Of a DNA stretch of 64,000 nucleotides, positions 32,741 to 45,558 are shown one piece after another. Location of the stretch: the NCBI GenBank assembly GCA_963845185.1, contig CAWJRG010000009.1:768001-832000 (forward strand), read 5' to 3'. The notes beneath the pieces are model-generated. The model had not been told where the DNA came from. It did not search any database and saw only the letters and a program-made list of their open reading frames with translations. The stretch comes from an uncultured bacterium. GTDB lineage: Bacteria; Oederibacteriota; PGYV01; CAWJRG01. The first letter of the stretch is position 1. Each line of letters opens with the position of its first letter. A program made the position numbers and the translations under genes.

Positions 32741-32815
32741 TGGCTGGGGAGCTAGGGCTCGAACCTAGAGATGCGGGCGCCAAAGGCCCGTGCCTTACCA
32801 TTTGGCTACTCCCCA
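32741..32815 (-). tRNA. tRNA-Gln (TTG)
   Basis: TGGGGAGTAGCCAAATGGTAAGGCA CGGGC CTTTGGC GCCCG ...GGTTCGAGCCC... CCA; folds as a cloverleaf; ispE-tRNA-Gln linkage is common. Confidence 0.95.
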
Positions 32816-42812: not shown

Positions 42813-43181
42813 TTATGGAAGATTTCCTTCCAATTCCTCGCATTGATAGAGGGTTGTTTGGCTGAACGCAACTTTCCCATCCTCGTATATTTGCTCTAAA
42901 ACATCATCCCCGCAACCATCACATGCGGCTAAAGTAACTCTGGTTCCTGATTTTGCGTTATATGTAGGGGATTTCCACGGAAGGCTTGATGGTTCGACTT
43001 CATATCCTATACCATTCACGTAATATGTAGTCTGATAACCGTCATTATTATAACCTCCGCACCCACTGTTTGATACAGAGAAGTAAACCTTGTGGGTAAA
43101 TAGCGAGCAGGAAGAGCAGGACAGTGTAAGAATACAAATTACTGCTAAAACCATTAATAAGATTTTTTTGTGAGTAGACAT
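42813..43181 (-). CDS. Small Cys-rich lipoprotein (MmpS-like Ig fold); 3' exon of the intron-interrupted gene
   Basis: Lipobox LSC; SLPW.S.TY; the ORF start (ATG 43181) lies inside intron domain VI; the native ATG is at 45076-45078; paralogue at 45211. Confidence 0.8.
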   Translation of the reverse strand: MSTHKKILLMVLAVICILTLSCSSCSLFTHKVYFSVSNSGCGGYNNDGYQTTYYVNGIGYEVEPSSLPWKSPTYNAKSGTRVTLAACDGCGDDVLEQIYEDGKVAFSQTTLYQCEELEGNLP

Positions 43182-45074
43182 CTTTTATAACCTCCTTTGG
43201 TTACTTAATGCCCCTCTCAGAACCGAACGTGACCGTTTCGGTCATTCGGCTCCACGGGAATACTTCCTAATACGATGACAGCGAATAGGTTAAATGATAT
43301 ATCCTGGGTTCCGGCAATGGGTTGTATCTTAGAAAGCGGCAAAACTGTTCCCAGTTGTAACTTCTTTTCTGGCTTCGCCTGTTTATCCATTTATAGGCGA
43401 GCGCACGATTTCTCCAGTAGAATTTTGTTATTTGGGGCATATTACCGCTTATCCCGTAATAATTGTAGTGGCCCGTTAACTTTCTTCCTAATGCCTGCCA
43501 CCACTGTTTTAATTCCACAAGATTTCTTACGCTCTTTAGCCAGAAGTTCGTCGCCTTCATCTTCTGTTTGAATTTTGTACTTGCCGTCCTTCGGCCTAAT
43601 TTGAAGCCGCCCTTTCTGGTTTTGTCGCAGTAATGAGTAAACCCGAGGAAATCAAAGGTCGGAATTTTCCCGCCTGTATCTTTGGACTTATACCAGGCGT
43701 GGCGCCCGAATACGATTATTCTCGATTTATCTTTGGCGATTTTGAGGCCAAACTTATCAAGCCTCTGTCTTAACATTTCGCCAAACTCCTTTGCTTCGCT
43801 GTCATATTGGAACAGCACAACAAAGTCATCGGCATAACGTATCAGACTGGCGTATCCTTTGAGCTGTCTCTTGACATGCCTTTCGAACCACAGGTCTAAT
43901 ATGTAGTGTAGGTAGATGTTCGCCAGTAATGGGCTTAGTATTCCGCCCTGCGGCGTCCCTTTATCCGTTTCGATAAACTTACCTTCTTCCATAATCCCTG
44001 CATTTAATATCCTGCCGATTAACCTTATCAGGTTTGTATCGGCAATCCTTTGCGTAAGGCATTTCATTAGCCATTTGTGGTTTATGGTATCGAAAAACTT
44101 CTCAATGTCCATATCCACTACTGCGTTGACTGGCTTTGTCATTACTTCCTTATCCAGAATTTTCAATGCCTGATGACAATTTCTGTCAGGCCTGAACCCG
44201 TAAGATACTTCGCTGAAGTCTACCTCAAAGATTGACTCAAGAATTTTCTTTACCCCCATCTGGATTATCTTATCCTCGACGGCAGGTATTCCCAGCGGCC
44301 TCTTGTCTCCGTTTGTCTTGGGGATGTAGACGCGCCTTGTTGGTTGCGGTATGTATCTCCACGCCTTCATCCTATTGATTAAATCCTTGATATTTGCCTC
44401 TTTGTTGACTTCATATTCCTCTATCCTTACTCCGTCAATGCCCGGGGCTTTGTCCTGTTTTAACTCCCCAAAGCACTCCATTAGAAACTCCTCATTGAGC
44501 AGGTGTATCAGCGATGTAAATCTCAATTTTGGATTTTCCTTTGCCCGCATTGTTATGGTCATAAGTTTTGTTGCCATTCCGTCTCCACCTCTGTGTGTGG
44601 CGGTTGTCTCCCTTATGTCCATACGCATTCCCTCTATCCCCTTTTCTCCATCTACTTTCGTAGACTTCATCGATACTATGGGATAGTCAGACTGCCGGAA
44701 CATCTTTTGCGGCTCCTTATCTTTTAGGATTTGTCGCCGCATACTCTCGTTTTGAGGGTGTCCCGGCTCTCCCGAGTTCATATCTGCTCCTTGACATCTT
44801 GACACGGACTTAGACCCCGTCGGATTCCCACTCTCTCGCCTTTTTATGATTGTGGGACTGCTGCCTGCTCTTTTATGAAAAATGTCGGCCTCCGACACGT
44901 TGGCGATTTCGGGGCTCAATACCTTCACTTGCGTTGTATCCCGATGTCTCCCGCCTTCCAGCTTCATTTAGCTCGTTGCCTCACTATTTGTGGAATTTGG
45001 TATTGGGCTGGCGGCTGACCTTTGCCCAGGCTGGACTTTCACCAGCGCGAACCGATACGCTTTTCTCGGCGCAC
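43169..45074 (-). mobile_element. Group II intron (IIB-like, about 1.9 kb) with RT/maturase ORF
   Basis: 5' GTGCG at 45074; DV GAGCCGAATGACCGAAACGGTCACGTTCGGTTC (43220-43252); DVI GAGGGGCAT...ATGTCT-A-CTC with a bulged A; RT ORF in DIV. The 3' boundary is 43169 or 43170. Confidence 0.92.
43267..44577 (-). CDS. ltrA: Group II intron reverse transcriptase/maturase, no endonuclease domain
   Basis: APGIDG, RPLGIP..EDK, SYGFRP, D...FFD, GTPQGG.LSPLLANIYL, YADD, FDFLGF, domain X GHYNYY; likely start MATKL at 44577. Confidence 0.95.
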   Translation of the reverse strand: MATKLMTITMRAKENPKLRFTSLIHLLNEEFLMECFGELKQDKAPGIDGVRIEEYEVNKEANIKDLINRMKAWRYIPQPTRRVYIPKTNGDKRPLGIPAVEDKIIQMGVKKILESIFEVDFSEVSYGFRPDRNCHQALKILDKEVMTKPVNAVVDMDIEKFFDTINHKWLMKCLTQRIADTNLIRLIGRILNAGIMEEGKFIETDKGTPQGGILSPLLANIYLHYILDLWFERHVKRQLKGYASLIRYADDFVVLFQYDSEAKEFGEMLRQRLDKFGLKIAKDKSRIIVFGRHAWYKSKDTGGKIPTFDFLGFTHYCDKTRKGGFKLGRRTASTKFKQKMKATNFWLKSVRNLVELKQWWQALGRKLTGHYNYYGISGNMPQITKFYWRNRALAYKWINRRSQKRSYNWEQFCRFLRYNPLPEPRIYHLTYSLSSY

Positions 45075-45092
45075 TCATATTCCGCCTCCTTA
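45075..45092 (-). promoter_or_regulatory. Native RBS and start codon (5' exon) of the interrupted lipoprotein gene
   Basis: AATTAAGGAGGCGGAATATGA matches the paralogue's AATTAAGGAGACGGAATATG; a TTGCAT-17-TAAAAT promoter lies just upstream. Confidence 0.8.
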
Positions 45093-45210: not shown

Positions 45211-45558
45211 TTATATTGTGCCGTCAAGGGTTATACCACAGTTATAAGTATCATTGGCGCTTACCAATACGTTCCCATCCCTGTATATGTACATGTTAGT
45301 ATTATTGTTACAGCCTTCGCAACAAAATATTGAAACTGAAGATCCTGCTTTTGCAGTATATGTGGGAGACGTCCATGGCAGGGATGGATAAACCGTATAA
45401 GACGAACCGTTTACAGTATATTCTATCCAACTACTCGTACTGCAGGAACCTGTGTCAGTTACCTTAAAGTAAACTTTGTGGGCAAATAACGAGCAGGAAG
45501 AGCAGGACATCATAAAAACGCTGAATATAGCTAAAACCATTAATATAATTCTACGCAT
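45211..45558 (-). CDS. Small Cys-rich lipoprotein (MmpS-like), paralogue of 42813
   Basis: Shares LMVLA...SCSSCSLF.HKVYF, VNG, SLPW.SPTY.AK.G, C.GC, IY.DG. Confidence 0.82.
   Translation of the reverse strand: MRRIILMVLAIFSVFMMSCSSCSLFAHKVYFKVTDTGSCSTSSWIEYTVNGSSYTVYPSLPWTSPTYTAKAGSSVSIFCCEGCNNNTNMYIYRDGNVLVSANDTYNCGITLDGTI

Follow-up and report, generated by a model that had tools for sequence, protein, structure and literature searches.

The group II intron at positions 43169 to 45074 (minus strand) of a 64,000-nucleotide stretch of DNA from an uncultured Oederibacteriota bacterium (contig CAWJRG010000009.1 of assembly GCA_963845185.1, positions 768,001 to 832,000; hereafter the window) interrupts a lipoprotein gene after the first base of its second codon and carries, within its own domain VI (DVI), a Shine-Dalgarno (SD) motif and an AUG in frame with the 3′ exon. 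As judged by comparison of sequences, an SD and AUG in DVI are not peculiar to this locus but characterise a large intron lineage with a scattered phylogenetic distribution, and the lineage most likely takes translation-initiation regions as its targets and provides the genes it enters with a replacement start. The anatomy of the intron and its target rule are close to certain, and a replacement-start function in which ribosomes use the DVI AUG is probable.

The intron parts the lipoprotein gene from its own ribosome-binding site and ATG, as an earlier note on this DNA had proposed and as the minus-strand reading of the locus bears out. The features of the locus, in window coordinates, are the following.

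45085..45091, minus strand: native SD motif AAGGAGG in the 5′ exon of the interrupted lipoprotein gene; its final GG is part of the candidate intron-binding site 2 (IBS2) GGCGG.
45075..45078, minus strand: native ATG (45078-45076) and first base of codon 2 (A, 45075), together ATGA; end of the 5′ exon and core of intron-binding site 1 (IBS1).
43169..45074, minus strand: group II intron of 1,906 nt, GUGCG...CUCACA, with GUGCG at 45074; placed by Rfam and by the copies in the genome.
44902..44906, minus strand: candidate exon-binding site 2 (EBS2) UCGCC; pairs with GGCGG/GGUGG of 5′ exons.
44873..44878, minus strand: exon-binding site 1 (EBS1) UCAUAA; pairs with UUAUGA / AUAUGA, its CAU reading the start codon.
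43267..44628, minus strand: intron-encoded reverse transcriptase (RT)/maturase open reading frame (ORF) in domain IV; start at 44628 or 44622, RVT_1 match at 1e-40.
43220..43252, minus strand: domain V (DV), with the 5-nt terminal loop GAAAC.
43169..43216, minus strand: DVI, carrying the SD and AUG.
43191..43198, minus strand: DVI SD AAAGGAGG, with AAAGGA in the apical loop and GG in the apical stem.
43179..43181, minus strand: DVI AUG; it belongs to the basal helix (3′ strand), follows the SD by 9 nt and is 13 nt away from the end of the intron.
43175, minus strand: bulged branch-point adenosine, predicted from structure.
42813..43168, minus strand: 3′ exon, the rest of the small Cys-rich lipoprotein ORF, with signal peptide, LTLSC lipobox and stop codon included.
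45211..45558, minus strand: uninterrupted tandem paralogue of 115 aa, 48% identical, which fixes the native N-terminus.

The structural hallmarks of a group II intron are present at this locus, including the 5′ GUGCG, DV, a DVI with a bulged A, and covariance-model matches to Rfam RF02005 (D1-D4-6; 44805-45039(-), 100.4 bits) and RF00029 (DV-DVI; 43168-43254(-), 49.1 bits), and only one DV-DVI is matched by Rfam in the whole window. Subtracting the ORF of about 1,360 nt from the intron length leaves a ribozyme of about 550 nt, and RVT_1 is the only Pfam match in the RT ORF, with no endonuclease domain found there. The DV loop is GAAAC or GAAAU in 17/17 aligned sequences. In the available portion of the source, introns of the IIE and IIF classes have a 5-nt DV loop instead of a tetraloop and a ribozyme of 450-700 nt without the ORF (PMC3753933), with which the loop and the small ribozyme agree; the likeness of the intron to these classes rests on these two features, and Rfam gives no letter class for RF02005.

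The DVI reads GAGAGGGGCAU UAAG UAACC AAAGGA GGUUA UAAAAG AUGUCU A CUC ACA, followed by AAAAAAUC in the 3′ exon. The transcription of DVI in the earlier note agrees with this in every letter except for two ('AG') missing from its 5′ strand. DV and DVI together fold at -35.4 kcal/mol in RNAfold (z score -5.1), and 0/200 shuffles fold as well. In the 5′ exon, the spacer GCGGAAT lies between the native AAGGAGG (45091-45085) and the ATG (45078-45076). The ORF list contains the predicted unspliced product, a 122-aa ORF at 42813..43181(-) that begins at the DVI AUG (MSTHKKILLMVLAVICILTLSCSS...; MSTHKKILL...), and the predicted spliced product of 119 aa (MKKILL...) follows provided that the intron spans 45074-43169. 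As the uninterrupted paralogue begins with MRRIILMVLA, the native form of the interrupted protein would begin with MKKILLMVLA, which supports the spliced N-terminus. The two members of the tandem pair are small Cys-rich lipoproteins of 115 and about 119 aa with no Pfam family, and a search for the 3′-exon protein in 40 related genomes returned only its own paralogue and weak matches (31% identity) in 2/40.

The same arrangement recurs throughout the genome, which holds six full-length copies of the intron (99-100% identical, with the same ends at different sites) and one internally deleted copy. The near-identity of the copies suggests that the intron is a copy of an active retroelement. No RNA run was listed as containing the locus, and contigs of two DNA runs matched it in short pieces inside the intron that included no junction, no empty site and no part of the A run. 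All seven sit at gene starts in which GGAGG-N5-6-ATGA precedes the intron and an A-rich stretch follows it, and in all seven the host ORF is open in the DVI frame to a normal stop (69-337 aa) and has an N-terminus resembling a signal peptide or lipoprotein. Two of the host ORFs match Pfam families above the curated cut-off, namely MORN_2 and FGE-sulfatase. The deleted copy (L007/L008, C1:269104-269908) consists of the 5′ 660 nt at 89% identity and the 3′ 138 nt. Its DVI start is GTG (GUG) rather than ATG, and its host ORF is still open over 250 aa with RHS/MORN-like repeats.

The exact 3′ border of the intron can be placed from these copies. Canonical borders of GUGCG...CAC would leave one surplus A in all seven, so the mobile unit is taken to be GUGCG...CUCACA. 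The extra A is assigned to the 3′ end because the base before GUGCG varies among relatives (A or G) and is the partner of the first EBS1 base. Two arguments thus support the CACA end, namely frame arithmetic in 7/7 copies and the pairing of EBS1 with the A in ATGA; gamma-gamma′ covariation, sought by eye in the domain I alignment, did not discriminate between ...CAC and ...CACA. As seven consecutive A follow the CAC of the intron 3′ end in the window (43169-43163), a dead gene or a homopolymer error in this run could in principle fake a continuous frame in this one copy. Such a local artefact is highly improbable, as the phase of the DVI start is the same in 7/7 copies despite A runs of 4 to 7 after CAC, the host ORFs are intact, and the DVI frame is also open at most of the unrelated sites considered below.

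The distribution of the DVI start signal beyond this genome was assessed in 141 loci, comprising 54 from an RT search of one-genome-per-species contigs, the best 80 of 330 metagenome-contig stretches and the seven own copies. Redundancy among metagenome contigs was removed by identical flanks only, and end detection was motif-based, missing 39/141 3′ ends and 55/141 5′ ends, largely where a contig stops or where the intron is of another class. An in-frame DVI start is present in 97/102 loci with a readable 3′ end. It is an ATG at position -13 from the intron end in 94 loci, a GTG at -13 in one, and an ATG at -16 with an SD in two (L086 and L094, with the DVI variant AUGGCUUCUACUCGAC), where one extra codon keeps the frame. 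The remaining five are L025, with an ATG at -16 and no SD, and four loci with no credible DVI start (L024, L029, L040 and L055, the last a group IIC intron). The final three intron bases are GAC in 69 loci, ACA in 26 (the clade of the window), AAC in five, AAA in one and GAT in one, and the distance of the start codon stays at 13 nt across the terminal variants CGAC, CAAC, CACA and CAAA. Among the 97 loci, with L025 set aside, the SD is GGAGG in 83, AGGAG in five, GAGG in one, AGGA in four and absent in four, with a spacing to the start of 5-11 nt (9 nt in 70 loci). The length of DVI is 41-51 nt in 83 loci and 117-119 nt in 14; in the latter, about 70 nt are inserted and SD and AUG are still adjacent. 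By record titles the loci fall into at least a dozen phylum-level groups, including Omnitrophota, Aerophobetes, Aminicenantes, Thermodesulfobacteriota, Planctomycetota, Actinomycetota, Chloroflexi, Verrucomicrobiota and Bacillota, with the bin assignment of short contigs carrying a mobile element being unsure.

The frame set by the DVI start continues into the host genes. In 53 of the 61 non-redundant loci whose 3′ exon is available over at least 200 nt, the longest of the three frames is that of DVI, and it is open for at least 60 codons in 48/61, as compared with 2 and 5 for the other two frames. The expectation that SD, AUG and phase would be kept in relatives across different insertion sites is therefore borne out, with the start at -13 or -16, four 3′-terminal sequences, two DVI architectures and a tie to start-codon insertion.

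Insertion at gene starts is likewise a property of the element, as seen in all of the own copies and at 75/86 readable 5′ junctions of the 141 loci, where the 5′ exon ends in a start codon plus one base (ATGA in 67, ATGG in six, GTGG in one and GTGA in one). An SD-like motif lies 4-12 nt upstream in 65/67 non-redundant start sites and is GGAGG in 50. The preference is explained by EBS1, the loop of a domain I hairpin with the alignment consensus CUGU-UCAU-NNN-GGAGCAG, which in 81/87 loci forms 4-10 contiguous base pairs with the end of the 5′ exon, counted from the splice site. The first four bases of EBS1 are UCAU at ATGA targets, the general form being 5′-YCAU, and insertion occurs at gene starts because EBS1 has this sequence. 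A changed EBS1 fits a changed exon in ten loci (L024, L027, L030, L040, L043, L092, L099, L100, L138 and L140). EBS1 is CCAU at ATGG targets (L099, L100) and CCAC at a GTGG target (L027). At sites that are not start codons it is UAAAGA opposite UCUUUA (L024), UGCCGC opposite GCGGCA (L040), UCCGUG opposite CACGGA (L041, by eye on the domain I alignment), UCCAGU opposite ACUGGA (L092), UGAAGA (L138, L140) and CGUGA (L030). This covariation with both start and non-start targets argues that the CAU in EBS1 reads the start codon. In L043, the 5′ exon ends in CTCTTATG, exactly at the ATG and directly before GTGCG (phase 0 rather than phase 1), and its EBS1 CAUAAGAG pairs perfectly; the RT of this copy is truncated and its DVI lies beyond the contig. 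An alternative placement of EBS1 at a AAUCAUAAAAAGG loop further downstream was dropped, as the alignment put the covarying loop at 44873-44878. A second UCAUAAAAA motif at 44851-44863(-), in the next domain I hairpin loop (CACAAUCAUAAAAAGGCGAG), is a duplicate of the EBS1 sequence found in the clade of the window only, and relatives have AACCGNNNNGGCGAG there.

The second exon contact is less general. In 6/6 own full-length copies the EBS2 candidate UCGCC pairs with GGCGG/GGUGG in a segment that overlaps the SD, and CUCC- or UUCC-like EBS2 loops face the SD in many relatives. The longest EBS2 pairing averages 5.14, against 4.93 (standard deviation 0.11) with shuffled partners, a weak control because all exons share an SD. 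EBS2 is accordingly held for the own copies only, and a role as a general anti-SD is not claimed.

Several lines of evidence bear on whether the DVI signal is kept for its coding function. In the alignment 98.9% of DV/DVI cells are paired, and the apical stem shows compensatory changes in 4/5 pairs with GGAGG constant. In the basal helix the variation is confined to the 5′ strand, and the AUGUCU-A-CUC strand is invariant in 17/17 sequences. A purely structural origin would make the AUG a basal helix sequence and the purine-rich apex a tertiary contact, with the open frame following trivially from start-codon insertion. The conservation of the adjoining UCUACUCGAC in relatives without any AUG, the partial pairing of the SD-like apex, and the long and structured DVI of IIF introns (PMC3753933, available portion) speak for such an origin. 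It is nevertheless quite unlikely, as the SD keeps a distance of 5-11 nt upstream of the start despite an insertion of about 70 nt or a continuous helix, GGAGG is constant in a stem that otherwise covaries, the -16 variant is longer by exactly one codon, loss of SD and AUG goes along with loss of the start-codon target, and canonical RF02005 members have a different DVI sequence.

The co-loss of signal and target was assessed among the 67 non-redundant loci in which both ends are readable. An SD and a start are present in the DVI of 58/59 start-site insertions. The other eight loci comprise two with mutated start sites and the signal kept (L016, ATAGA; L108, ACGA), four in which the AUG is kept and the SD is lost (L025, L030, L092, L140) and two in which both are lost (L024, L040). 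In sublineages whose EBS1 has shifted to non-start sites, the SD or the AUG is gone. In L108 (5′ exon ending in GAGGTGGTGAGTACGA) and L016 (5′ exon ending in AAGGAGAAAGTTATAGA) the native start has mutated to ACG and ATAG, respectively, with EBS1 still UCAU and the DVI SD and AUG intact. As the native start has decayed in these two loci, their host genes may now depend on the start of the intron.

The DVI signals could also load ribosomes for the good of the intron itself, by protecting the RNA after the RT ORF from nucleases or Rho-dependent termination or by timing branching, with rescue of the host gene being incidental. Ribosome association is reported to protect Ll.LtrB RNA from degradation (PMC3851717, cited in the available text of PMC12584367), the RT stop codon is only 86 nt upstream of the DVI AUG, and the AUG is paired beside the branch A, all of which are compatible with a benefit to the intron. 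However, ribosome loading needs no fixed phase, yet -13 or -16 is kept across four terminal variants, and the signals decay in sublineages off start codons even though these are still transcribed introns with an RT ORF. This explanation is therefore unlikely, though less so than a structural one, and a replacement start for the host gene remains the preferred interpretation.

The history of the trait is consistent with such a function. In a 31-row RT tree the earliest branches of the clade already have the trait, and AUG-less introns are nested within it, with three changes needed, which suggests that the DVI start signal is ancestral in the clade with nested losses. A larger tree of 91 rows contains three independent contrasts (four counting unsupported branches), all in the same direction. 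None of 11 introns outside the clade, comprising nine IIC and two canonical RF02005 introns, has an ATG in DVI. The two canonical RF02005 controls are from Peribacillus (Bacillales) and Arthrobacter plasmids, from cultured hosts and with an RT 52% identical, and they are not inserted at start codons.

A number of observations weigh against a replacement-start function. The UCUACUCGAC segment is kept for ribozyme reasons in relatives that lack the AUG as well, so part of the invariance of the AUG strand does not come from coding. Co-loss comprises just three to four independent contrasts, too few for significance (sign test p about 0.25), and 13/61 3′ exons are short in the DVI frame, some of them perhaps belonging to decayed genes or encoding small proteins. 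Assembly can produce metagenome contigs that are chimeras joined at identical copies of the intron, a caution for counts that use both flanks. In the predicted fold, the AUG and the 3′ GG of the SD are base-paired, and access to them needs the DVI to open. Finally, in the window copy the frame of the native AUG stays open for 37 codons of domain I, so ribosomes from the native start may interfere with the intron too. Together with the pairing of the native SD and AUG to the intron as IBS2 and IBS1, this open run suggests that the native start in the precursor is probably poorly used or harmful to folding.

The mechanism proposed here is that of a lineage of small IIE/IIF-like introns (Rfam D1-D4-6) with an endonuclease-less RT that has most likely specialised on translation-initiation regions. 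EBS1 (5′-YCAU-N) reads the start codon and the next base, EBS2 would read part of the SD or the spacer, and insertion falls after the first base of codon 2 (phase 1). As insertion cuts the gene off from its own SD and AUG, the intron carries a putative substitute in DVI, with the SD in or beside the apical loop and the AUG in the basal helix (3′ strand), where its distance of 13 nt from the 3′ splice site puts it in phase with the 3′ exon. Spliced RNA would have the native start restored (MKKILL...), and unspliced RNA would be translated from the DVI AUG (MSTH-KKILL...) into a host protein with MST(R/H/Q) in place of M. In the clade of the window, the final intron base A would restore the native second codon. 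The cost of insertion to the host would then be low, with or without splicing.

In the predicted fold the DVI AUG is paired and lies three bases from the branch A, so initiation and DVI function should exclude each other: initiation at the AUG should unfold DVI, and the AUG should be out of reach once DVI has docked. For other introns it is established that ribosomes within core sequences impair splicing (PMC3073962, available portion). The switch between ribosome loading and branching that the earlier note proposed is plausible and at present a doubtful proposition. A wider interpretation, held tentatively and at somewhat less than even odds, is that of a widespread and apparently undescribed lineage homing to initiation regions with a portable DVI cassette and a translation-coupled choice between gene expression and release of the retroelement. 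This interpretation also comprises an anticodon-like CAU in EBS1, an often anti-SD-like EBS2, a fourth target specificity and the expression of host genes from unspliced RNA.

Several known introns share parts of this arrangement, and the comparisons that follow draw on the available portions of the cited papers. The C.te.I1 intron of Clostridium tetani (McNeil et al., NAR 2014, PMC3919590), rightly named in the earlier note as a partial precedent, has the start codons of four downstream ORFs annotated inside D5/6 motifs, and its unspliced RNA is the main form and itself coding. It resembles the window intron in the start codons in D5/6 and in a coding unspliced RNA, which for the window intron is predicted, and differs in being ORF-less and located between S-layer protein ORFs rather than at an SD-ATG. 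Introns of the C.te.I1 type are ORF-less with several downstream D5/6 motifs, whereas the window intron has an RT ORF and a single DV-DVI. Alternative splicing of C.te.I1 fuses ORFs via a shifted 5′ splice site, and the available text reports neither a lineage-wide SD and AUG in fixed phase nor start-codon targeting (PMC3919590).

The IIB1 'start/stop-codon' lineage (Avi.groEL, EcKTE56.groEL) colonises the codons of translation signals in such a way that the signal stays working, and the groEL stop codon UAA becomes UAG on intron insertion (Gomes et al. 2025, PMC12584367, citing Michel et al. 2007). These introns have a CL1 RT and an insertion of 300-700 nt at the base of domain I and are found in housekeeping genes of proteobacteria, with the studied members in a stop codon, and the available portion of this paper mentions no initiation signal inside DVI. 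In contrast, domain I of the window intron starts normally and aligns with its relatives from base 1, and inserts in domain I of some relatives are at most about 60 nt, none reaching 300 nt. The best-matching Rfam D1-D4 family of the window intron is RF02005 rather than one of the IIB1/CL1 type, a family distinction that is our own reading.

Group IIC introns, which target terminators and attC, lack the endonuclease and recognise a common feature of gene expression instead of a single sequence (PMC4424553), which gives them many low-cost sites per genome. They share with the window intron the endonuclease-less RT and the targeting of a generic signal, and differ in having a DNA hairpin target, a short EBS1, insertion outside ORFs and no start signals. 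Canonical RF02005 or IIE/IIF-type introns share the Rfam D1-D4 family, the UCUACUCGAC 3′ end, the small ribozyme and the endonuclease-less RT, whereas their insertion sites are not start codons and both an AUG and an SD-to-AUG arrangement are missing from their DVI. In Ll.LtrB and EcI5, the start signals of the RT are in subdomain IVa, where translation and either RNA structure or protein binding hinder one another (PMC3073962, PMC8643678, PMC12584367). The placement of an SD and start codon inside a ribozyme helix is common to these and the window intron, whereas in Ll.LtrB and EcI5 the signals serve the ORF of the intron itself and are located in domain IV rather than DVI. A full-text literature search found no account of an SD or AUG in DVI or of SD-ATG targeting, and an earlier mention is possible.

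Because bacterial translation is coupled to transcription and splicing takes a long time, introns inside genes should be harmful. By placing an initiation signal in its branch-point domain, the element seems to make splicing dispensable for expression of the host gene. Targeting of start regions would explain many insertions into protein genes per genome at little cost, and recognition of the SD-AUG region by a start-codon-reading EBS1 would add a target specificity to the three (homing sites, terminators and attC) listed in a 2015 review of group II introns (PMC4424553, available portion). The arrangement also has consequences for annotation, as gene callers will start host genes at the intron AUG (N-termini MSTRQ, MSTHK), which hides the intron and gives the protein wrong first residues and a wrong start. 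As natural material, the lineage lends itself to tests of ribosome-ribozyme competition, and it suggests gene-targeting vectors that would not silence their target.

In two pairs of metagenome loci (L143/L144 and L139/L142) the intron and 3′ flank are identical and the 5′ flanks are unrelated. Exon mobility was considered for these pairs and set aside, assembly chimeras across identical intron copies being simpler. A deltaproteobacterial contig carries a c-di-GMP-I riboswitch (RF01051, 65.4 bits; L060 277-370(-)) near a IIC intron. The window itself contains a tRNA gene at 32744-32815(-) (Rfam RF00005, 62.5 bits) that is unrelated to the intron.

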